Assembly (NCBI GenBank): GCA_029762535.1
Contig: JARVGK010000003.1
Span: 73,216-137,215 of the forward strand
Reading direction: 5' to 3'
From: Thermoplasmatota archaeon
Lineage (GTDB): Archaea > Thermoplasmatota > Penumbrarchaeia > Penumbrarchaeales > Penumbrarchaeaceae
DNA: 64,000 bases
A model generated the notes under the pieces. It searched no databases, was not told where the DNA came from, and worked only from the letters and a program-made list of their open reading frames with translations. A program made the position numbers and the translations under genes. Every line of letters begins with the position of its first letter. Position 1 is the first letter of the stretch. Shown piece by piece: positions 3,189 through 64,000 of the stretch.

Positions 3189-6100
3189 TCATTTTCTCTT
3201 TACTCTCTTCCTGGTCCTGACAGTGGCCCTTTCCGATCCATCGTCATCTGGGGGTGTTTCTGCGGACATGTCCTCTTCAGAGGTCTCGACCTCGGGGCCT
3301 ACCTCATCGTCCTCAAGGACCTCATCCTCGAGATCTTCCTCATCTTCATATCCCTCCTCCTCTGCTCCCTCCTCTTCGTCCTCGGGCTCCCCTTCGTCCT
3401 CCAGGTATTCCTCATCTTCCAGGTCCTCATCGGCTTCCTCATCCGCGTCCCCGTAAGCCTCCTCATCGAGATAGTCATAGCTGTAAGGATCGAACTCCTC
3501 CTCATCGGTTCCGAGATCGTCGTCCCTGGGCTGTTTGATGTATATGTATACGCCGATGGCGATGATGATGATCGCGAAGATTGCAAGGGCCGCGTACATC
3601 ACCTCCCTCGGTATCCCATCGGATCCTACGATGGTCCTCTCGGTCCGGAAGGTCCATGTATTGTTGGTGTAGCCCTGAGGGAAACCGGCCCCTTCTATGG
3701 ACCTGGCCTCGGTCCCGATCCTCACGGTGTATGATACGCGGTTGCCGAGCCCGTCGTGCAGGATCTCGAGGCTCTGATTGTTATTGGTCCATACGTATCT
3801 CGCACCTTTGAGGGGGGGGTCGATCGTAGTGTATGATTCGATGGTAAGGGTGTCCATGGGCTGGTTGAACATGATCCTTATGGAGGTATCGAGGTCCCTG
3901 ACCGTACCTACCGGGGTCCTCCAGAGCACCAGGAGCTCCCTGGGCGGCGGAGTGAAATCCAGATAGTCCAGCCTGATCTCGAACCTGCCCCAGTATGGTT
4001 CCTGGGAACTTACCTCGAACGTATTGGTCATCTTCTGCAGATATCCCGCTCTCTTCCCGGGGATCGCCGAGACGGATTCCGGAGGGGTGACCTTGAACCT
4101 GCCAATGAAGGGGAGCGTCCTGATGCTGAACGTCGCCTCTCCCAGGTTGTTCGTGGTCCTGTTCTCGAGGACGACATCATCCATCGAAAGCAGTTCTATC
4201 AATGCGTTGAAGACCGCCCCGCTCCTCGGACCCTCTCCGAATGCGACGAAAACATCTATCGAACCGGTCTCCGGTCTGAGATAATATGTCAGAAAGAGTT
4301 CAGTGAAAAGATCGGGGTTCGGACCTGATGCGGATATGAACGTGCTGGTGTTCGAGAGATAGCCTGAGCGAACGCCGATCTCTCCTCTCAACGCGGCCTC
4401 CGGAGCTCCTTCCAACCTGTATTCCCCTCCCATCTCAAGGGAGGAGAATCCAACAACTCCGTCCTCCTGGGCTTGGGCGCTCTCGATCAGAGTGCCGTTG
4501 AAGGACAGGAGACGTACTATGGAGCCCTGCGCCCCCTGGCCTGAGAGCGGCCCTCCCTCGTAAAGGACCGTCACTTCAAGTGAATAGAGCATGCGTTCGG
4601 TCGTTCCCTGGAATACGGGAGTGTAAGGGGAATAGTTGTATGATGTATCGAAGGCCAGCATCCTGAAGCCATAAAGCGTCCCGGGGACAAGACCTCCTAG
4701 GGTGTACGACGTTTCTCCGGGACCGAGCGTCACAAGCGTTTCGAACTGCGTCATGGAGGGGGTAGAATTCATCTCGATGATGAAACCTTCAAGATCGGTC
4801 TCGGAGCCGGGGTCCCAGGATATGGTGAGATGATCGACGCCCTTGTCGGAGATGATCGCGGAGGTTGGCGTGGCGGGCGGGGTCAGGTCCGACGTGATGT
4901 TGGTCGCTGGCTGGGAAGGAGCCCCTTCCCAAACTCCGTCAAAGGCTGACACTCTGAATATTCCCCGCGTGGAAGGGCCTATCTCAGGGGATATCCAGGA
5001 TGTTGATGGATGGTCGACCTCCCCCGAGAGTATCCATTCTCCCGAGGAGAATGAGTATATCCTGTAGGCGATCGTGTCGTCGTCGTTGGGGTCCCATTTT
5101 AGCTTTATGCTCTCGAGCGTATCCAATGAGTCCGCCGTCAGGTTCAGGACGGATTGTGGAAGGTCTATGTCAGGTACAACAAGTTCGACCGACATCGGAG
5201 CCGATGTGTCGATATCGTAGACATGATCCCATATCATCGCCGTTCCCGGAACGTGAACGGTCGCGTTGGTCCTAACGTTCATAGGCGCGTTGGATCCGGG
5301 ATAGATCATTTTCAAGGCCACGAATGGTGCTATTCCGCCATCCGGTCCCGTGACCGGGTCGCTCCCCCCGAAGTAAGGGGTCGAGTGGAGGCCGCCTGTC
5401 CTTTCGTTCACTACGTGGAGCTCCACTCCTTCCATGGGCTGCACGTCCTTGTACAGGACGCGAACTCCGATCGTGTTGCTTATCATTACGTTCGACATGG
5501 GGTCGACATCGAACGAGGACACGGTAGTGTCCAGGACCTCGACCTCAGCTCCTTCGTATGCGGATAGGGCCGTCCCGCTGGCGACTATATCCGATCCCAC
5601 AACGGCATGGTCCCCCTCCCTGAATATCACGCTCCTTTGTGCGTCCACCTTGCTGTTGTTCATGAGCAGTCGGGCGCTATTCGATTCCAGGCCGATGCCG
5701 GCGCTCTTGACGATGACGTGGTCCAGGACGATATCGTTTCCGGAGAGGTCGAGGGCGGCCATGGTGGTATTGGACCAGATGATGACGTCCTTCATCATCA
5801 TGCTGGTCGTATCGTGCCCCGTTACTATCGAATGGCCTGTGCCCGGATCGGAATGGATCATGGTGGTCAGGATGCGTAGATTGGTAGTATGCGGAGGCAC
5901 TGGGCCTGCCCTTATCCCTGTCGATCCCTCTCCGATGAGGTCGATGGAACAGCCATCGATCACCCCTCTCCTTACGTCCCCGAGAACGTCTATCCCCGTA
6001 CCGGGGCCGTTCAGATATATCTGGGAGTATACCACCTCGTTATTACTTCCGCCCAGATGGAGTAGCCAACCGTCGTTGAACGATGTGAGGGTGGAGTCGA

Positions 6101-7520
6101 TAAGGACGTTGTCCGTTCCCGAGAGGATCGATCCGCTCGAAGCTTCGCCCCAGACTATGAAGGTCGAATCTCGGATCTCCGTCTGGTCCGCTCCAACCCG
6201 GACCCCGAAGGAGTTGTCCGCCCTTATGGAATAGCTGTTCGAAGAAAGGAGCGCCCCCCTGCCCGGACCGAGAACGATGCCGTTGGTCATCATACCGCTG
6301 GTCATGATGATGTCATTGATCAGGGTGAGGTTCCTGTGGTCGGAGAAGGCCGCTATGATCGATCCATTCCCCCCTTGGTAGAAGTTCGATCCCGATATGG
6401 ACATATCAACGCATCCCAGTAGGAACGACCCGTTCACAAGGCCCCCGGAGAGGGATATGCCCGTTTGATTATCCCCCTTCGAGGAATAGGACAGGTCCAT
6501 GATCGAGCATCCTATGAGATGGGTGCCATTGAGGAAGGACGAACCGTTCCCGAGCATGTTCACAGATGTATTGCTCAGCATGACATCCCTCACGTTGAAC
6601 ACCTCGATACCTCTGGCTCCCGAGTCCAGGAAAAGGGCCGTCCCGTTCATTGTGACGTTATCACACGATGAAAGTTCGATGCCGTGTGTGTTCTTACCGG
6701 TCATGGTGAGGAAGCAGCCCTCTATCTCTATCCCGGAACCGGAGAGGTGCATCGCCGTTCCGACCATCTCGATGATCATGGCATTGAGCTCGAGGTCTGT
6801 ACCCTGGAAGTGGATCCCAGATGCTCTCCCGGTCGATGTGATGCTGGAGTTATGGAAGTGGATGGAATCTCCCGAGATGATGAACCCCTTTGAACCGGAC
6901 CCGAGTCCTATGTCCATGTCCCTGAAGGTGATGTTCGAGACATTGATGGCATGGCATATCGTGGATCCCGATCCGTCACTTGCCATTTTCCCCAATATGA
7001 TGTTCGATGAATTGGCTATGTTCACGCAGATGTCCGGCGATCCCGAGAAGGATGCTCCGTCGATCTCGATGGACTTCGACGACTCTATGTTCAGAGCGAT
7101 GCCGGTCGTTGACCTGAAGCCGATCCCCGTCAGATCGATGTCGTTCGAGGAGATGTTGAGAGACCGACCGACGAAGGTCATGCCGGCCAATGTTACGAAG
7201 GGAGCGGTCACACTGCTGTTCTTGCCATACGGGCCTGAGATAAGTACCGATGCCGTATCATTACCCCTGAGCGTTACGGAACGGGTCCCGACACTGATCG
7301 ATTCGTTGTAATTGCCGGATGCGATGACTATTACATCGCCCTCGACGGCATCGCCCAGGGCTGCCCCTATGGTGGAATAGGTGGATCCCGTCCCGACGTA
7401 AAGTACGAGTCCGGATGCCCCGCGTGGGGTTATCAGCAGGATCCCCGATGTGAATAACAATAATACCATGGCCGTTGCGATGAGCTTACCTTTGCGTTCC
7501 CCGGCGTGTACTTCGATCAT
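3189..7520 (-). CDS. large cell-surface protein: parallel beta-helix, FN3 repeats, Ig-like domain, TM anchor, acidic tail
   Basis: Signal peptide; YSTIGAALGDAVEGDVIVIASGNY beta-helix cap; FN3-like segments (LTISWDP...YTLGGLVPGTLYGFRM); IRIMFNQPMD Big_5-like motif; TM then D/E-rich tail. Confidence 0.85.
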   Translation of the reverse strand: MIEVHAGERKGKLIATAMVLLLFTSGILLITPRGASGLVLYVGTGSTYSTIGAALGDAVEGDVIVIASGNYNESISVGTRSVTLRGNDTASVLISGPYGKNSSVTAPFVTLAGMTFVGRSLNISSNDIDLTGIGFRSTTGIALNIESSKSIEIDGASFSGSPDICVNIANSSNIILGKMASDGSGSTICHAINVSNITFRDMDIGLGSGSKGFIISGDSIHFHNSSITSTGRASGIHFQGTDLELNAMIIEMVGTAMHLSGSGIEIEGCFLTMTGKNTHGIELSSCDNVTMNGTALFLDSGARGIEVFNVRDVMLSNTSVNMLGNGSSFLNGTHLIGCSIMDLSYSSKGDNQTGISLSGGLVNGSFLLGCVDMSISGSNFYQGGNGSIIAAFSDHRNLTLINDIIMTSGMMTNGIVLGPGRGALLSSNSYSIRADNSFGVRVGADQTEIRDSTFIVWGEASSGSILSGTDNVLIDSTLTSFNDGWLLHLGGSNNEVVYSQIYLNGPGTGIDVLGDVRRGVIDGCSIDLIGEGSTGIRAGPVPPHTTNLRILTTMIHSDPGTGHSIVTGHDTTSMMMKDVIIWSNTTMAALDLSGNDIVLDHVIVKSAGIGLESNSARLLMNNSKVDAQRSVIFREGDHAVVGSDIVASGTALSAYEGAEVEVLDTTVSSFDVDPMSNVMISNTIGVRVLYKDVQPMEGVELHVVNERTGGLHSTPYFGGSDPVTGPDGGIAPFVALKMIYPGSNAPMNVRTNATVHVPGTAMIWDHVYDIDTSAPMSVELVVPDIDLPQSVLNLTADSLDTLESIKLKWDPNDDDTIAYRIYSFSSGEWILSGEVDHPSTSWISPEIGPSTRGIFRVSAFDGVWEGAPSQPATNITSDLTPPATPTSAIISDKGVDHLTISWDPGSETDLEGFIIEMNSTPSMTQFETLVTLGPGETSYTLGGLVPGTLYGFRMLAFDTSYNYSPYTPVFQGTTERMLYSLEVTVLYEGGPLSGQGAQGSIVRLLSFNGTLIESAQAQEDGVVGFSSLEMGGEYRLEGAPEAALRGEIGVRSGYLSNTSTFISASGPNPDLFTELFLTYYLRPETGSIDVFVAFGEGPRSGAVFNALIELLSMDDVVLENRTTNNLGEATFSIRTLPFIGRFKVTPPESVSAIPGKRAGYLQKMTNTFEVSSQEPYWGRFEIRLDYLDFTPPPRELLVLWRTPVGTVRDLDTSIRIMFNQPMDTLTIESYTTIDPPLKGARYVWTNNNQSLEILHDGLGNRVSYTVRIGTEARSIEGAGFPQGYTNNTWTFRTERTIVGSDGIPREVMYAALAIFAIIIIAIGVYIYIKQPRDDDLGTDEEEFDPYSYDYLDEEAYGDADEEADEDLEDEEYLEDEGEPEDEEEGAEEEGYEDEEDLEDEVLEDDEVGPEVETSEEDMSAETPPDDDGSERATVRTRKRVKRK

Positions 7521-10360: not shown

Positions 10361-11431
10361 GTGTTGATCATGTTGGAGGACCAGCTTTCCACATCCAGGT
10401 TCGAGAGCGTTGGGGTCAATGTCCCCTCCAGGTCACTCACGACCACCGACCTTATGAGGTCCATGAAGCACAGGATCGGGCTAGACCTCGAGAGGCTTAC
10501 GGGCATCCATGCTAGGAGGGTCTGCGCCCCAGGAGAGTCATCATACACATTGGCCCTGAATTCCGCCAGGGACTGCCTCAGCCATTCGAGATACAAGCCG
10601 GATGACCTGGAGGTTATAATAAACTGCTCCATATCCCGTTCAAAGGACCGGAACATGATAGTCTATGAACCATCCATGGCCCATTACATCCGTCAGGCGA
10701 TCGGGGCCAAGAACGCAATGGTGTTCGATATCAACAATGCATGCGCTGGAATGCTAACGGGCGTTCAGATACTAAACGGTTATATCAGGAACGGAATATT
10801 CAAGAACGGCATGGTCGTCAGCGGAGAGCATATAACGCCGATCAGCGACAGCGCGACAAGGACGGTCAGGTCGATAGCGAGCAGACAGCTCGCCTCCCTT
10901 ACCGTTGGAGACGCGGGAGCCGCGGTAATACTCGAAAAAACGGGGGATCGGGGCAACGGGATGTCGGTCACCCAGTTCACCACCCTCTCGAAGTTCAGCA
11001 GGCTCTGCATAGGAAAGCCGCTCACCAACGATATCGGCGGAATGATGGTGGCAAAAGCAAGGAAGATCCACAGGGTGGCCCTGGACCACGCCCCTCAACT
11101 GATCAAGGGGGCCCTCATCAAGGCGGGACTGACCATAGACAGGATAGATCATCTCATCCCGCACCAGACCTCGAAAAGCTCAATAAAGAAAGGCATAAAG
11201 GAGATGGCCGACCATTTCAAAGCGACTCCCAAGAACGTCGTCATCAATCTGATGGAGTATGGGAATACGGCCTCGACGACAGTGTTCCTTGCCCTTCATG
11301 ACATGCTCAAGGGCGGCATCGTGAAGAAAGGCGAGAAGATCATGCTATTGTGCTTCGCATCGGGCCTGGTCGTTGGGGTTATCATCTTTACAATGGACGA
11401 TCTGGTGGATCGATATGGGATCTCGAATTAG
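10361..11431 (+). CDS. FabH/OleA-like condensing enzyme, catalytically intact
   Basis: Cys (DINNACAG), His (IPHQTS), Asn (YGNTAS) triad plus OleA-type Glu (YEPSMA). Confidence 0.85.
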   Translation: MLIMLEDQLSTSRFESVGVNVPSRSLTTTDLMRSMKHRIGLDLERLTGIHARRVCAPGESSYTLALNSARDCLSHSRYKPDDLEVIINCSISRSKDRNMIVYEPSMAHYIRQAIGAKNAMVFDINNACAGMLTGVQILNGYIRNGIFKNGMVVSGEHITPISDSATRTVRSIASRQLASLTVGDAGAAVILEKTGDRGNGMSVTQFTTLSKFSRLCIGKPLTNDIGGMMVAKARKIHRVALDHAPQLIKGALIKAGLTIDRIDHLIPHQTSKSSIKKGIKEMADHFKATPKNVVINLMEYGNTASTTVFLALHDMLKGGIVKKGEKIMLLCFASGLVVGVIIFTMDDLVDRYGISN

Positions 11432-12311
11432 GTCAGCCGCATTCGTTGGGAAGAGCCTCAACCCTTTCTCCAGAGGCGCCATATCACTGGGTGTCAAGGC
11501 TGCGAGGAAATGCATCCATAACTCGGGTATAGACCCGTCAGACATAGGACTGCTCATCTTCTGCGGAATATACCGGGACGAGAACATCGGGGAGCCGGCC
11601 ATCGCCTCGCTCATACAGTCCAATCTTGATATCAACCTCCTGAGCGAGGGTGAGAAGGGGACGTTCGCGTTCGACATACTGAACAGCGGTTGTGGGATGG
11701 TGACCGCGCTCCATGTGGCCGACAGCCACCTCCGATCGGGTGGAGGTGAATATGCGATGATAGTGGCCTCCGATCACATACCCATCCCGAGCCATACCGA
11801 GGGTTACCCTTTCCAACCCGGGGGAGGCGCACTTCTGCTCGAACGCTCCGACGAGGACAGGGGCCTTACCGATTTCAGGTTCGATACATATCCGACCGAC
11901 AAGGAGGCCTTCCACTCGTTCATCGAATACAGGGACGGAAAGGAGAAGGGTAAAAAGAAGGGGCAGTTCCTCAGGTTCGAGGAGGACCCACATTTCCTGG
12001 AAAAGGGCGTATCGGGTGCGCTTATGACGGTTAATAAACTCCTTGAGAGGAATTCACTGAGCATCGATGACGTACGGTCGATCCTGCCATCCCAGAGCCC
12101 GACAGGCTTCCCCATTGCCCTTGGAAAAGGGTTGGGCCAAGAGAAGAGGACCATTGACCTTACAAGCATCCATGGGAACCTCCACACGGCGGGATTGGCG
12201 GCCTGTCTCGAGAGCGCCATGGAGAGCGATAAGCTTCCTGCGAACTCGAACCTCCTTCTCGTAAATGTTGGATCGGGAATATCGGTGGGCGCGGCCCTTC
12301 TCCGAACATGA
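11415..12311 (+). CDS. FabH/OleA-like paralog with degenerate active site
   Basis: Same fold motifs (GEPAIA, FDILNSGCG, GGGALLL, HGNLHT, VGSGISVG), but Gly at the Cys position and Ser at the His position; overlaps the upstream gene's end. Confidence 0.78.
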   Translation: MGSRIRSAAFVGKSLNPFSRGAISLGVKAARKCIHNSGIDPSDIGLLIFCGIYRDENIGEPAIASLIQSNLDINLLSEGEKGTFAFDILNSGCGMVTALHVADSHLRSGGGEYAMIVASDHIPIPSHTEGYPFQPGGGALLLERSDEDRGLTDFRFDTYPTDKEAFHSFIEYRDGKEKGKKKGQFLRFEEDPHFLEKGVSGALMTVNKLLERNSLSIDDVRSILPSQSPTGFPIALGKGLGQEKRTIDLTSIHGNLHTAGLAACLESAMESDKLPANSNLLLVNVGSGISVGAALLRT

Positions 12312-12342: not shown

Positions 12343-13338
12343 TCAGATCGGATGCCCCTTCAGATATTCTCCATACCTCTTCATACCCTCCGCCGTGGAA
12401 ATCCTAGGTCCGTAGCCAAGGTCCCTTTTGGCCGAGGAGATATCGAACCAGTGTGAACTGGTCATCTCCTCCACAAGGAACCTGGTGACAATGGGCTCTC
12501 CTCTCCTTCGAAGGAGGAAGTGGGTCAATTCCATGATCCCCGCTAAAGCCATGGCCGTCCATTTGGGAATGGACCCCCTGATAGGAGGGGCCCCTGCAAG
12601 GGCCAGGAAGTCATCGATGGCATCCCAGGCATTCACTGGCTCACCGTTGGTGATGAAATATGCTCTGCCCCTGCATCGTGGGTTCTCCTTGAGCGCTTTG
12701 AGGGCCAGGATATGGGCCTCGGCGGCGTTTTCAATATAAACCATGTCCACAACGTTCTTTCCGCCCCCTAACCTCTTCAACCTTCCGGCCCTTGCCCCCT
12801 GGACGAGCCGAGGGAGCAATCGGTCGTCCCCCGGACCCCAGATGAGATGCGGACGCAGTGCAATGGTCCGAATATCATCGCCGTTCGCTGAGAGGACCAT
12901 ACGCTCGGACGCCGCCTTGGTCCGGTTGTAATGCGACCCATGCACTGCGGGATACGGTGCGCTCTCATCGGCGCCCTCCATGTCCTTCCCATCAAAGACA
13001 ACGGAAGGGGAGCTTGTGAAGACGAGGTAACCCACTCCGTTACTCCTGCATGCTTCGATCACGTTCCGGGTCCCCTCAACGTTCGTCCTGTGGAATTCGT
13101 GATAAGGCCCCCAGAAACCCACCCTGGCAGCAGTATGTATGACCGCATCCATGCCCCCGACGGCATCCACCACCGTTCGCTGGTCCCCTATGTCCCCTGA
13201 TATCGTCATGATGCCGCTCTTCCCAAGTTCAGGATAGCTGCCTCTGGAGAAGCTCGTGACATCATGGCCCTGATCCCGGAGCATGTGACATATGGCTCCT
13301 CCCAGGAACCCGCCTCCGCCGGTGACGAGGACCCTCAT
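12343..13338 (-). CDS. oleD: OleD-like 2-alkyl-3-oxoalkanoate reductase (3-beta-HSD-type extended SDR)
   Basis: VLVTGGGGFLG, TSSPSVVF, YNRTK, LRPHLIWGPGD; start overlaps the oleC stop (TGATG). Confidence 0.85.
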   Translation of the reverse strand: MRVLVTGGGGFLGGAICHMLRDQGHDVTSFSRGSYPELGKSGIMTISGDIGDQRTVVDAVGGMDAVIHTAARVGFWGPYHEFHRTNVEGTRNVIEACRSNGVGYLVFTSSPSVVFDGKDMEGADESAPYPAVHGSHYNRTKAASERMVLSANGDDIRTIALRPHLIWGPGDDRLLPRLVQGARAGRLKRLGGGKNVVDMVYIENAAEAHILALKALKENPRCRGRAYFITNGEPVNAWDAIDDFLALAGAPPIRGSIPKWTAMALAGIMELTHFLLRRRGEPIVTRFLVEEMTSSHWFDISSAKRDLGYGPRISTAEGMKRYGEYLKGHPI

Positions 13339-14960
13339 CAGAATTGCCTCCCGGCCCATTCCGCAAGCTCTTCCCTGAGTATCTTGGCATTGTGGCGAAC
13401 GTCCATCGGGAATCCGTCATGGATCAGGATATCTCTAATATCCTCGGTCAGAATATTGGCCTTTCCCAAAGCCAGGAGCTCCTTTTTGATCCTGTCCGGA
13501 TCGCCGATATTTTGGTCCTTCTTAAGCTCGACAACGATCACAGGCCTCTGGTTTCCTATTTGACCCACACCGACTAGTGCCGACCTGAAGACCAAGGGGT
13601 GTTTGTTGAAGATCGCCTCACATCTGACGGGATATAGCGTTCCTTTCTTTGTCACGACCCTGTGCGCCTTCCTCCCGCAGAACCAGAGCATTCCGTCCTC
13701 CAGATAGCCCGTGTCCCCCATTCTGTGCCATATGGTCTTGCCATCCAGTATCTTGGCGTTTTTGGTATGCTCAGGCTTCCTGAAGTATTCCTTGGTCACC
13801 GAGGGCCCCCTCACGCATATCTCACCGACTTCCCCATCCGGTAGGACCTCAGCGGACCCCCAATCCGCGACAGGTCCGTCCGTGATCCGAATGATCCGAA
13901 CCTCGTTGCCAGGTAGCGGCCTACCCACGCATGTTCCTGCTCCGGTCTCGGTCCTGCGGAGGGAGTGCTCCAGTATCACATCGCTGGAGATATCAGTTAC
14001 TGGCAGTGCCTCGGTCGCCCCGTAAGGAGTATGGATAAGAGCATTTTTTGGCAGTATTCGGTGAAGATCGACCATGAGGTCGGGACGTATTGGAGCTCCC
14101 GCGGTCACGATCCTTCTCACCGATCCCAGGGTCAACTTCCTCTCTATCCCGTAACGGGCCAGGTTCGTCAAGAGCGCCGGGGAACCATAGACATTGGTGC
14201 ATTTCTGGTCCTCAATGGCCCTGACTATGTTCTTAGGATCGGCCTTTCCGGGCTTGGTAGCATCCATGTAAGGGATGACCGAGGTCAGCCCCAGGTTGGC
14301 GTCGAATAGGGCGAAGAGCGGGAACGTCGCCAGGTCAACATCTCTCTTTTCGTATCCGAAATGGTCCTTTAGGAATCCGATCTGATGGTCGAACATGGAA
14401 TGTTCGTAGACCACTCCCTTCGGGGGGCCTGTGGAACCGCTGGTGAAGAAAATACCGACGGTATCCTCAGGCCTTCTCTTGACCGAAGGGAAAGGAGCGG
14501 GATCGGAGGATCGAACCTCTTTAAGCCTCTTACCGCCCCATGCACCTGTGGTTATCTTCAGTTCGACGGTCCTGAAAGCGGACGGTGAGAGTATCCTGAG
14601 TACATGGGCAAGGGGCGTCCCGATGAACGCCTTGGCCTCGACCTCCCCGAGGGAGGAGACGAGCCTCTTCTTGCCCATACCAGGGTCTATCATAACAAGG
14701 ACAGCCCCCATTTTTAAAAGGGCGGAAGTGAGGGAAAAGAACTCTATCGAGGGTTTGACCATCAGGATGGCCTTGTCGTCCTTCTTGAGCCCCGCATCGA
14801 TCAACCCCCTGGCGTATCTGTTCGATTCCTCCTCTAGCCTGCGGTAGGTCATGCTCCTATATCGAGGAGACGGATCGACCTGGACCACCACAGCCGCCTT
14901 ATCAGGTTGTGTCCTTGCTAACTCCGTCAACCTCTCCGAGAGGTTCGTCGTCGAATCCAT
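13338..14960 (-). CDS. oleC: OleC-like beta-lactone synthetase (ANL adenylating enzyme)
   Basis: FTSGSTGPPKGVVY, TPYGATEALP, WHRMGDTGY..WFCGRKAHRV and OleC-type FPMDVRHNAKI. Confidence 0.88.
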   Translation of the reverse strand: MDSTTNLSERLTELARTQPDKAAVVVQVDPSPRYRSMTYRRLEEESNRYARGLIDAGLKKDDKAILMVKPSIEFFSLTSALLKMGAVLVMIDPGMGKKRLVSSLGEVEAKAFIGTPLAHVLRILSPSAFRTVELKITTGAWGGKRLKEVRSSDPAPFPSVKRRPEDTVGIFFTSGSTGPPKGVVYEHSMFDHQIGFLKDHFGYEKRDVDLATFPLFALFDANLGLTSVIPYMDATKPGKADPKNIVRAIEDQKCTNVYGSPALLTNLARYGIERKLTLGSVRRIVTAGAPIRPDLMVDLHRILPKNALIHTPYGATEALPVTDISSDVILEHSLRRTETGAGTCVGRPLPGNEVRIIRITDGPVADWGSAEVLPDGEVGEICVRGPSVTKEYFRKPEHTKNAKILDGKTIWHRMGDTGYLEDGMLWFCGRKAHRVVTKKGTLYPVRCEAIFNKHPLVFRSALVGVGQIGNQRPVIVVELKKDQNIGDPDRIKKELLALGKANILTEDIRDILIHDGFPMDVRHNAKILREELAEWAGRQF

Positions 14961-14964
14961 CAGC

Positions 14965-15867
14965 CTACCCCCTGCGCAGGGCTTTCCCCACCTCTTTCAG
15001 GATGCGGTCCCTGGCATCCTCTATGACATAATGTCCAGCATCCTGATATGTCACGAATCGGGCCTTCGGGAATCGAGCCCTCCAGACGTCTAATATATCC
15101 ATATCGAATATGAAATCCTTTTCACCCCAAATAACGAGCATCGGCTTCCCCTTTAGCTTTGACAGGTTCTCGTCGATCCACTTGAGCGTGCCGTAGCTTG
15201 GGTCCTTTGGTACGAGGGGTATGTCCTGAACGAACCTGAGCGTGGATAGGCGGTTCCTCCACGAGTTGTACGGGGCGACGTAACCCTTCCTTACATGGGG
15301 GTCCATCCTCTTTTCAACGCCGATATGGGACGCTATTCTGGAAAAAGCGTTGAGACCCCTGATGAGAAGGGTCGGTGAGATCAGGCCGTACTTCACGTAA
15401 TAGAGAGACAGGGGCAATCTCTTGCCCTCCGGCATCCTGAAGGCCGCGGTGTTCATGAACACGAACCTCGAGAACCGCTCCGGATGTCCGACCGCGACCC
15501 CTGCTCCGATCACACCCCCCCAATCATGGGCTATCAGAGTGATATCCTCATCGATGCCCAGGTGATCGAGGAGCGCTTCCACATCCTGGATCCTGGATGC
15601 GATCCTGTATTGGTATTTGTCCTCTCCTGGTCGGTCCGACAGCCCCATTCCCATATGATCGGGCACGATGCATCGGTGGTCCGCCCTGAGGTCCTTGACC
15701 AGCTCCCGGAAATAAAAAGACCAGGTCGGGTTGCCGTGAAGAAAAAGAACGGGAGGTCCCCTGCCCTCGTCGAGATAATGATGCCTCAGACCGTTCCTCT
15801 CGAACCAGTGATGTTCGAACGGGTAAATGTCCCTGAAAGGGGTAATATCGAAAGGTGTTCCATGCAT
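14965..15867 (-). CDS. oleB: OleB-like alpha/beta hydrolase (haloalkane dehalogenase fold; beta-lactone decarboxylase)
   Basis: LHGNPTWSFYFR, AHDWGG nucleophile, DAGHY catalytic His; directly upstream of oleC. Confidence 0.85.
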   Translation of the reverse strand: MHGTPFDITPFRDIYPFEHHWFERNGLRHHYLDEGRGPPVLFLHGNPTWSFYFRELVKDLRADHRCIVPDHMGMGLSDRPGEDKYQYRIASRIQDVEALLDHLGIDEDITLIAHDWGGVIGAGVAVGHPERFSRFVFMNTAAFRMPEGKRLPLSLYYVKYGLISPTLLIRGLNAFSRIASHIGVEKRMDPHVRKGYVAPYNSWRNRLSTLRFVQDIPLVPKDPSYGTLKWIDENLSKLKGKPMLVIWGEKDFIFDMDILDVWRARFPKARFVTYQDAGHYVIEDARDRILKEVGKALRRG

Positions 15868-16033
15868 TGTATCCGGGGACCAAGGTCCATATCCTAAATT
15901 AAGATTGCTTCGGGGATGATCCGCTTAGATCGATCTATTATCATCCATCATCATTCATGAACCCCGGGATGTTTAATTATGGTCGAGTGGGGTTCGAATC
16001 CCGTGCGTCGCTAGAGCTACAACAAATTAGATA

Positions 16034-16120
16034 TGGTGCAGGGGAAGGGATTCGAACCCTCGAACCACTAAGGACCAGACCCTGAATCTGGCGCCGTTGG
16101 CCAGGCTTGGCTACCCCTGC
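16034..16120 (-). tRNA. tRNA-Leu (anticodon CAG), CCA encoded
   Basis: GCAGGGG/CCCCTGC acceptor stem, CCAGA-TTCAGGG-TCTGG anticodon arm, long variable arm, GGTTCGAATCC T-arm, ACCA end. Confidence 0.96.
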
Positions 16121-16442
16121 ATGTTTTTGCGTTTGTGCCTGGGTAGCGTATGGCCAACGGCGCCCCGAGACGCAGTCTCGGTGATGGCGCCTCGGATGGG
16201 TGGCATGTGCCACCCGTCCCCTTCCGCGAACGCTTTGGTGGTGAGACCAAAGGGTTCTTGGGCAGGCTTGGCTACCCCTGCATGTTTTTGCGTTTGTGCC
16301 TGGGTAGCGTATGGCCAACGGCGCCCCGAGACGCAGTCTCGGTGATGGCGCCTCGGATGGGTGGCATGTGCCACCCGTCCCCTTCCGCGAACGCTTTGGT
16401 GGTGAGACCAAAGGGTTCTTGGCCAGGCTTGGCTACCCCTGC
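16097..16442. repeat. tandem 161-bp repeat: three copies of the 24-bp tRNA-Leu 5' end separated by two identical 137-bp structured units
   Basis: TTGGCCAGGCTTGGCTACCCCTGC at 16097, 16258 (1 mismatch) and 16419; 16121-16257 is identical to 16282-16418. Confidence 0.95.
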
Positions 16443-16517
16443 GATATCTGGGCATCGTTGATACGATGTCGCCTTTAACGACCGTTCGATAATAAAGATA
16501 TCGATGAGAAGGTCTCA

Positions 16518-61784: not shown

Positions 61785-62138
61785 TAAGGGAAAACCGTAA
61801 ATAATCACTCTGGAAAAAAGGTTATATGAAATTCATATATGAATGATTCAAGGAAGAAGATCATCAAAGAGATGTTCGAAAAGAAGGGGTGGGAAAAACC
61901 CTTTGATGAATAACTATAAATAGTGGTTATAAATATTTTATCGATAAATTTCTTATAGTCCTATTTTATATATAAATGATATTTTTAAAAATGCATGTTT
62001 TTAAAAAGGTATATATATGGGGTATCGAGATATCATTTTCCATGGAAAAGGACGTGACAAAAGGACCCAAAGCGGATCTCTTGATTTTGATGCAGTATCC
62101 CGTTCTGAATAAGTAAGAGAAGATATAAGTAGACAGAG

Positions 62139-63374
62139 GTGAATGACATGGAAAGGATAAGGAACAAAAAAGCAAGCAGCATAGCGATGGTATTGTTGGT
62201 GATCGCAGTAGGGGTTGTAGCATTGGTTTCAATACCCGAGATGGTATCCGCCAGCAATGATTGGTATGTGAACTCGGCAGGTGGAGCAGATTTCCTGACA
62301 ATAAATCAAGCTCTTATCTCACCACAGGTTCAGGATGGAGATACCATATATGTGTATTGTGGAAACGGATATTCCGAAAGTAATCAAATAACTAAATCCG
62401 TTAGTATTATCGGCATTACAAATAACGGGCAAAGGCCAATGATTACCCCTTCTAGTAATAGTCCCGTTTTTGATATTAAAAAGCAGGATGTCACCATTCG
62501 TAATCTCGAGATATGTGGTCTTAATTCTCAAAGTCAATCGGTACATGGTATCCGATCCGGTGTTTCTTCTACAGAAGTTAGTAATGTCGAGATCGATAAT
62601 TGCATAATATACAATTTCTCTAAAGGGAATGGAATATTCCTGAATAAACAACCTGGAGATTTTCCATACCCCACTTCCCATTATATTCATGATTGCATAA
62701 TATATGGGAATACTATTGGTATCCACATTAAATCCGACCCCAATATCCAAGGAGCGTTGACGAATCATGTTGTCAGTGATTGTATTATGGATAATAATCA
62801 CCTATCTGGTATTCAGAACGAAGGCGATAATAATGAATTCAATGACATTGAATCATATAATAGTAATAACTATGGTGTTTATTTCCTGGATTCTTCAGGA
62901 TGTAAACTGTATCAAACAGAAACCGGTTCAACAAATATTTATAATAACAAATATGGTATTTATATCGTAAATTGTGAAGGAATAGATATTACCGGTTATG
63001 GTAATGATTCGGAGAATGATCATCTAATGATAGAAGAAAATAACCTGTATGGCATATATGCTGTCTCAAGTGATGATATTCAATTATTATATGTGATCAT
63101 ACAGTCCAATTCCTTATTGGGTTTGAATTATGACTCCGTATTAAATAGCTATGTGGATTACTCCATAATAAAAGATAATGATATTTTCTTATATAATTCG
63201 GATTATAATATCTTTACTTATAATGACATATATGATTCTTCCGAAAAGATAGAAATAGGGTTGCATGGATCGGATCATAATTACTTTTATTATAATAACC
63301 TTGACAGAGAATCACCAAGTTGCTTTTTCAATATATTTAAATGGGGTATCCACTTAACTCCTAAACCAATCTAA
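62139..63374 (+). pseudogene. low-GC exported parallel beta-helix (NosD/CASH-like) protein, truncated by an IS end
   Basis: Signal peptide, DFLTINQAL cap, N..GI repeats; the last 10 codons run through the IS terminus. Confidence 0.7.
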
Positions 63375-63642
63375 TTATTAACCCTCAATCAATGAATGAT
63401 ACGGAGCCGGATCATGTGACGCAGCTAACTCAATCAATCTGTAAAACAGAAGACCTCTTGACTTTGACGTCCTTCTGTTAAACCTGAAAGTAAACTCATC
63501 CAAGTAATAATCGAGTTGTTCCTGACTGTAAGATCCATGATGTGTGCCAAGTAACCATCTCTTGACTAATGAGGCGATCAAATGGACACCAGGCATCGAT
63601 ACATGCGCAGGATTATTGGAAGATGAAATTATGGTTGGCCTT
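63343..63642 (-). mobile_element. IS1595-family element: right end plus C-terminal transposase fragment
   Basis: KRWLLGTHHG..QLDYYLDEFTFRFNRR (ISXO2-like); terminus GGGGTATCCACTTAACTCC at about 63343. Confidence 0.8.
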
Positions 63643-64000
63643 GGCGCTAAACTAAAAGGTACAAATATTGAATATAATTAATAAATATTAAGTGTGGGAA
63701 AAGCCATACGGATTTGCCATAACCTTGAGGTCGTCCGTATGACTCCCACAGAGACCATAATACCGAATGAAGTATACATGTTTTCCGGTCAAACGAACTT
63801 TGACACATGGAATTTAAAGGGAAGATTTCAATCTAAGGGGTGGTCTGTATATGACGAATGGCTTGTCGATGAAATCGTCCTTTGTATGCAAAAAATAAAA
63901 GATCTTGCTGATTCATTTCCCTTTTGGCAAAGAATTCGACTAACTGGCCGTCCAGGTATAGATGAAAGAGACCTATTGATCGGATTTTTATTAAAGCAAT
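63643..64000 (+). mobile_element. probable left end of a second IS; transposase-like ORF from 63739 running off the window
   Basis: IS1595 fragment breaks at GGCGCTAAAC; open frame MTPTE...WSVYDEWLVDE...TGRPGIDERDLLIGFLLKQ resembles transposase N-termini. Confidence 0.5.

Follow-up and report, generated by a model that had tools for sequence, protein, structure and literature searches.

We report here that two adjacent genes on a 64,000-nucleotide stretch of archaeal DNA probably encode the A and B subunits of a heterodimeric OleA thiolase of the LstAB/NltAB type, an assignment based on sequence comparison, and that this enzyme would feed the products of the neighbouring oleBCD genes. The stretch, which we refer to as the window, comprises positions 73,216 to 137,215 of contig JARVGK010000003.1 (assembly GCA_029762535.1), and its host is a Thermoplasmatota metagenome-assembled genome (MAG) of 2.96 Mb which is 93% complete. 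We infer the dimer, the action of a glutamate in trans, the substrates and the final product from the homologues characterised in bacteria. As the mechanism has been established for LstAB and NltAB, the pair does not represent a new kind of enzyme; what is new here is the archaeal host and the full oleBCD set that adjoins the pair.

The two open reading frames (ORFs) on the forward strand, as called mechanically, run from 10361 to 11431 (gene 1) and from 11373 to 12311 (gene 2). The first possible start of gene 1 is a GTG at 10361, which would give an alternative product of 356 amino acids; the most likely start is the ATG at 10370, from which the gene (10370..11431, + strand) encodes a 353-aa A subunit, an LstA/NltA-type thiolase resembling OleA and the β-ketoacyl-ACP synthases III (KAS-III), as judged from its PF08545 and PF08541 domains and its alignment to FabH structures. 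The earliest mechanical start of gene 2 is a TTG at 11373. We placed its start at the ATG at 11415, because the resulting 298-aa product is 100% identical to a gene call in the protein database (P0005) and because, among the B homologues, Met1 is invariant and Ile5 nearly so. The B subunit, an N-terminally shortened protein of LstB/NltB type that has lost the canonical triad, is therefore encoded at 11415..12311 (+ strand) and its gene overlaps gene 1 by 17 bp (11415..11431, + strand; ATGGGATCTCGAATTAG), the stop codon of A falling on codons 5 and 6 of B. An overlap of this length had been proposed in an earlier, sequence-only reading of the window and holds with this start. Both gene products match PF08545 and PF08541, which are the N- and C-terminal FabH domains, and both match FabH and OleA-like NCBIfam models below cut-off; A and B share 25% identity over their N-terminal halves.

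Alignment of A to solved FabH structures showed that the catalytic cysteine (NNACAG), histidine (IPHQTS) and asparagine (YGNTAS) are retained, together with the glutamate of a Glu-Pro motif (VYEPSMA). These residues are Cys125 (10742-10744), His265 (11162-11164), Asn299 (11264-11266) and Glu100 (10667-10669), the codons having been checked. The corresponding regions of B have diverged from E. coli FabH: AAACAGF reads LNSGCGM, so that Cys112 is replaced by Gly92 (11688-11690) and a cysteine, Cys93 (11691-11693), stands at the next residue, and VPHQAN reads LPSQSP, where His244 is replaced by Ser226 (12090-12092). Asn274 is retained (HGNTSAAS reads HGNLHTAG) and the Phe-Pro of FabH is a Glu-Pro in the motif GEPAIA, which contains Glu60 (11592-11594). 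The residues on either side (FD..N...G) stay in register, so the displacement of the cysteine by one position is real and not an artefact of alignment. The sequence-only reading had described this same division of residues, with gene 1 keeping all four and gene 2 showing a glycine at the nucleophile, a displaced cysteine, a lost histidine and an intact GEPAIA, and the comparison with FabH agrees with it on each point.

This pattern is not due to chance, as the same pair with the same residues occurs in more than 70 other loci. An alignment-based scan covering one genome per species found a B-like protein encoded at approximately 390-420 or more loci, while a locus scan with a single B protein as query returned no matches. 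All complete loci examined have an A-like gene immediately before B, and 76 of the 90 locus rows, which include some duplicates, show an overlap of exactly 17 bp, with the A stop codon placed over the codon of the conserved Ile5 of B and the codon that follows it. The 17-bp overlap was seen in archaea, Syntrophales and other Deltaproteobacteria, Bacteroidales, Myxococcota, Aminicenantes and Actinomycetota.

Residue conservation was counted over 74 A sequences and 76 B sequences. The catalytic residues of A are invariant (Cys in 74/74, His in 73/73 and Asn in 74/74), and Glu60 of B is equally so (76/76), followed by Pro61 in 75 of 76. The position of the nucleophile in B is occupied by Gly, Thr, Ala, Ser or Val and never by Cys, and that of the histidine by Ser or Ala and never by His, while the asparagine position, still Asn in the window's B, varies across the family. 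Moreover, Glu100 of A and Glu60 of B share a column with the invariant glutamate in the L-E-P motif of 27 canonical OleAs encoded in oleABCD clusters, and this glutamate is, by position and sequence context, the equivalent of Glu117 of Xanthomonas OleA. Natural A-B fusions that keep the gene order also exist, their N-terminal half resembling A (37% identity) and their C-terminal half resembling B (30% identity). The B half of two of these fusion proteins (P0084 and P0085, of 625 and 675 aa) keeps the Glu-Pro and lacks equivalents of Cys93 and His257.

Given that gene 1 has every residue required of a homodimeric OleA, including a glutamate of its own, it could be argued that its product is a homodimeric OleA/FabH-like enzyme which does not interact with the product of gene 2, the latter being a decaying or unrelated paralogue. 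We consider this highly improbable: B is strongly constrained (many of its columns stay invariant across deep divergence, and its fold is predicted confidently), its gene invariably comes after that of A with the overlap fixed, the two occur as fusions, and both LstA and NltA are insoluble or inactive when alone.

For B, an AlphaFold2 prediction from 81 sequences gave a mean predicted local distance difference test score (pLDDT) of 90.4 and a predicted template modelling (TM) score of 0.90. Confidence is lower in some blocks of the model, among them residues 51-60 with Glu60 (block mean pLDDT 64), and the low confidence of this loop would fit a segment that becomes ordered only against a partner. 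A Foldseek search with the model returned the FabH fold at a TM score of approximately 0.8, with OleA and PqsD among the matches; there was no LstB-type structure among these matches, nor any LstAB or NltAB among solved structures.

By analogy with the bacterial heterodimers, Cys125, His265 and Asn299 of A would form the sole canonical active site, to be acylated by a first long-chain acyl thioester. B, as a shortened partner with the FabH fold, would pack on A like the second chain of a FabH or OleA dimer and insert the loop bearing Glu60-Pro61 into the site of A, where the glutamate would remove the α-proton of the cysteine-bound acyl chain. The deprotonated chain could then attack a second acyl thioester in a non-decarboxylative, head-to-head Claisen condensation, giving a 2-alkyl-3-ketoacid which OleD would reduce, OleC would close to a β-lactone and OleB would decarboxylate to a long-chain olefin. 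Translation of the two genes may be coupled by their constant 17-bp overlap, and the two subunits would then be expected to be made in similar, ideally equal, amounts. The presence of an oleB homologue makes an olefin, and not a β-lactone, the expected end product.

The genes for these later steps lie on the opposite strand in the order oleB-oleC-oleD, convergent with the pair and with only 31 bp between the stop of gene 2 and oleD. The one nearest to the pair encodes a putative 2-alkyl-3-oxoalkanoate reductase resembling OleD (12343..13359, - strand, 338 aa), of the short-chain dehydrogenase/3β-hydroxysteroid dehydrogenase type (PF01073, 1.5e-60), whose best NCBIfam match is the OleD model NF042422 (398.6 bits, cut-off 580) and which is 39-52% identical to oleD products of canonical clusters. 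The oleC-like gene, for a putative AMP-binding β-lactone synthetase (13338..14960, - strand, 540 aa), overlaps oleD by 22 bp; its product exceeds the cut-off of NF006754 (656 bits, cut-off 478), stays below the cut-offs of the more specific models NF045786 (olefin β-lactone synthetase; 565 bits, cut-off 900) and NF045785 (523 bits, cut-off 850), and shares 37-49% identity with OleC of canonical clusters. The oleB-like gene (14965..15867, - strand, 300 aa) ends 4 bp upstream of oleC and encodes an α/β hydrolase of haloalkane-dehalogenase type, with the nucleophile-elbow aspartate in HDWGG and a C-terminal histidine in GHYV, which is 37-48% identical to the product of the gene between oleA and oleC in canonical oleABCD clusters and 55-70% identical to OleB of related archaea. 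Bacterial loci with a single canonical oleA have the order oleA-oleB-oleC-oleD. As we found no other KAS-III-like gene in the host genome able to serve oleBCD, the pair is the only candidate OleA.

An alternative is that the heterodimer feeds the synthesis of a β-lactone or another lipid natural product, the hydrolase beside oleC having some other role. Both of the characterised heterodimeric enzymes, LstAB and NltAB, do belong to β-lactone pathways, one related archaeal locus (L032) has the order A-B-oleC-oleD with no oleB nearby, and the window's proteins fall short of the curated cut-offs of the OleC and OleD models. We nevertheless regard this alternative as unlikely, though worth bearing in mind, since the hydrolase gene lies 4 bp upstream of oleC in a conserved oleB-oleC-oleD order, since its product has both the identity to canonical OleB given above and the Asp and His of the haloalkane-dehalogenase-like OleB, and since no non-ribosomal peptide synthetase (NRPS), formyltransferase or other tailoring genes were found near the pair and oleBCD in the window.

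The loci closest to the window's pair come from Thermoplasmatota or Thermoplasmatales MAGs. Among 41 related genomes, the pair was found in 14 and oleC in 11; oleC never occurs alone, as all 11 of its genomes also carry the pair, while the three with the pair and without oleC are 62-86% complete. The sequence-only reading had suggested looking for the pair together with oleBCD, and the two do co-occur, both in the window, where they adjoin, and across these related genomes. Outside the archaea, nine Syntrophales/Deltaproteobacteria loci have A-B-oleB-oleC-oleD in one row wherever the contig extends far enough, their oleB, oleC and oleD being 50-58% identical to those of the window. In Bacteroidales the order is hydrolase-A-B-oleC-oleD, the α/β hydrolase there being more distant, and for most of the pairs in actinobacteria and myxobacteria neither oleC nor oleD lies within 8 kb. 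In a 2020 survey based on an OleA pattern (PMC7158056), neither Archaea nor Bacteroidetes were reported to have ole clusters, and we found no link of LstAB-type pairs to oleB in the literature.

A quick, unrooted FastTree phylogeny of the A subunits groups the window's sequence with three close archaeal sequences (support 100), and nests this archaeal group in that half of the tree where the bacterial sequences have links to ole genes; the nearest bacteria are one Aminicenantes sequence, Bacteroidales and Syntrophales. Given the patchy archaeal distribution of the pair, a transfer from bacteria into archaea would be the simpler reading of these sequences.

Some of the loci surveyed have peculiarities of their own. 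Among close relatives, B (L004, 8001-8842) is seen in two pieces, and so is oleC (G004, contig C11; L101/L102); each could reflect a frameshift, an assembly error or a decaying copy. A Cyclobacteriaceae MAG (L191) has a B-like gene approximately 4 kb downstream of oleB-oleC-oleD on the opposite strand, a convergent arrangement like that of the window. Finally, Mycolicibacter/Mycobacterium (P0071-P0083) have NRPS proteins of approximately 1790 aa in which condensation, adenylation and carrier domains are joined to an LstB-like domain, recalling lipstatin-type pathways.

A source of acyl chains for an Ole pathway can be proposed from the rest of the host genome, which has five acyl-CoA dehydrogenase genes and encodes a 3308-aa megasynthase resembling type I fatty acid and polyketide synthases (KS-AT-ACP-KR-DH-PPTase; genome G000, contig C17, locus L181, 819-10745), after which comes a multidomain acetyl-CoA carboxylase exceeding 1722 aa (L181, 10833 onward). 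Of the 23 genomes of the host's archaeal family, 21 encode the megasynthase, which is therefore not a binning error; all four genomes of a second family have it too, and two relatives carry it approximately 20 kb from oleBCD on the same contig. It is plausible that the megasynthase supplies acyl chains to the Ole pathway.

Several observations weigh against the assignment of the pair as an LstAB/NltAB-type thiolase working with oleBCD, or at least against its simplest form. The likeness of B to LstB and NltB is judged from their published features; a scan seeded with a Rhodococcus B subunit and aimed at the Nocardia nltABCD cluster returned Rhodococcus and Mycobacterium loci only. The OleA-, OleC- and OleD-type NCBIfam models score below their curated cut-offs for the window's proteins, and A, which is 23-28% identical to canonical OleAs, does not reach the family score of the OleA-type model (NF006720, 144.5 bits, cut-off 285). 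The pair and oleBCD are convergent and do not form a single operon, and in most related archaea the oleB-oleC-oleD operon is intact and on a different contig from the pair, so that their side-by-side position is not the norm for the family. Furthermore, a role of B as a pure glutamate donor explains neither the retention by A of its own glutamate (Glu in 72 and Asp in two of the 74 sequences at position 100, with Pro101 in all 74) nor the conservation in B, despite the lost triad, of Cys93 (74/76) and His257 (69/76; codon 12183-12185), residues which span archaea and at least five bacterial phyla. Neighbouring positions of B are similarly conserved (Asn90 in 76/76, Gly94 in 75/76 and Thr258 in 74/76). 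Either these B residues are structural, or B has a pocket with a function of its own.

The second of these options can be formulated as a heterodimer in which B has a non-canonical site made of Cys93, His257 and the Glu100 of A, which binds or primes the second acyl chain, sets its length or aids product hydrolysis. Such a site would account for the conservation of these residues, and for that of Glu100-Pro101 in A although the site of A should be served by the glutamate of B. However, NltB is inactive alone and published mutagenesis implicates only the glutamate, the conservation of Cys93 and His257 could be structural, and the absence of both from the natural A-B fusions indicates that they are dispensable in at least one lineage; a second site in B therefore seems rather unlikely to us. 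A still more ambitious proposal is doubtful: a bidirectional heterodimer, with Glu60 of B acting in the site of A and Glu100 of A in a remodelled B pocket, where Cys93 and His257 would serve to bind or prime an acyl chain, to select chain length or to release product, the whole fed by the megasynthase and delivering to OleBCD, in what would be the first archaeal head-to-head olefin pathway. Returning to the LstAB/NltAB-type thiolase, the sequence-only reading had proposed an obligate heterodimer with one active site to which the inactive subunit supplies the glutamate in trans. The heterodimer and the trans-acting glutamate fit all the sequence evidence (Glu60 in 76 of 76 B sequences, gene adjacency and fusions), whereas a strictly one-sided arrangement is less certain, because B conserves Cys93 and His257 and A its glutamate. 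The idea is supported by sequence homology, but was already known from LstAB and NltAB.

The heterodimer itself is of less interest than the putative archaeal olefin pathway as a whole. The two-subunit OleA appears to reach beyond the actinobacterial β-lactone clusters: in Syntrophales it would serve complete oleBCD sets as their thiolase, in Bacteroidales it stands beside oleC and oleD, and it co-occurs with oleBCD in one family of Thermoplasmatota. If the pathway operates as proposed, fatty-acyl-derived long-chain olefins of archaeal origin would bear on archaeal lipid biology and on the reading of sedimentary hydrocarbons. LstAB and NltAB proteins are reported to be unstable; the archaeal homologue is a possible candidate for structural work, in which Cys93 and His257 of B and the glutamate of A would be informative residues.

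Upstream of the pair and on the same strand are genes for CoaBC and an archaeal pantoate kinase, whose proximity we regard as coincidental, because this synteny is not conserved in relatives. The region between oleB and a permease gene (15868-16517) contains only short ORFs. A 1443-aa ORF at 3189-7520 (- strand), with fibronectin type III, β-helix and immunoglobulin-like domains, is probably a surface protein, and the G+C content falls to 0.36 at 62001-64000, compared with 0.51-0.59 elsewhere in the window.

Among the known systems, the Pseudomonas aeruginosa enzyme PqsBC had been offered by the sequence-only reading as an analogue. It is indeed a solved heterodimer of the FabH fold with one catalytic and one non-catalytic chain, PqsB, and A matches both PqsC (1.4e-11) and PqsB (1.4e-4), which might suggest a similar chemistry in which an acyl chain is condensed with a non-lipid β-keto acid. 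We give this almost no credence, as approximately 45 FabH/OleA entries outscore PqsC for A, B has no match to PqsB, and A has both the asparagine and the OleA-type glutamate in a gene context of oleBCD. PqsBC differs further in serving alkylquinolone synthesis, in having no trans-acting glutamate described and in its own gene context, and was rejected as the closest model on account of the much weaker similarity of A and B to PqsC and PqsB; LstAB and NltAB are much closer, and it is there that the mechanism with a glutamate in trans has been demonstrated (PMC12141560; bioRxiv 10.1101/856955).

Two further groups of enzymes share the catalytic residues of A. NocG and PpyS are stand-alone, non-decarboxylative KAS-III enzymes with the same Glu/Cys/His/Asn set (E100/C125/H275/N304 in NocG, compared with E117/C143/H285/N315 in Xanthomonas campestris OleA; PMC9486936), but they are encoded by single genes in nocuolin or pyrone pathways and have no B partner. 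Canonical homodimeric OleA likewise has all four catalytic residues found in the window's A, a glutamate acting across the dimer interface and OleD, OleC and OleB as partners, and differs in being a symmetric dimer with two active sites encoded by one gene, where the window has two genes.

The closest counterparts are therefore LstAB, from the lipstatin pathway of Streptomyces toxytricini (2019), and NltAB, from the nocardiolactone pathway of Nocardia brasiliensis (2020). The window's pair is set apart from both by its archaeal host, its oleB homologue, its convergent arrangement with oleBCD and a neighbourhood free of NRPS and formyltransferase genes. They have the following in common: adjacent FabH-like genes, A followed by B, are accompanied by oleC-like and oleD-like genes; the triad of the A subunit, C128/H271/N305 in LstA (PMC12141560), is C125/H265/N299 in the window; the B subunit is shortened (298 aa in the window, compared with 353 aa for A) and, like the truncated NltB (bioRxiv 10.1101/856955), has no triad; and the identity between the subunits is 23% for LstA and LstB (PMC12141560) and 25% in the window. 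LstA and LstB are soluble only when co-expressed (PMC12141560), and NltA and NltB are each inactive alone and form a complex of approximately 72 kDa (bioRxiv 10.1101/856955). The glutamate of the B subunit is found in all three, at E60 in LstB, E57 in NltB and E60 in the window's B. It is essential in LstB, where E60A is inactive (PMC12141560), and in NltB, where both E57A and E57Q are inactive and the residue was modelled on the trans-acting glutamate of OleA (bioRxiv 10.1101/856955).

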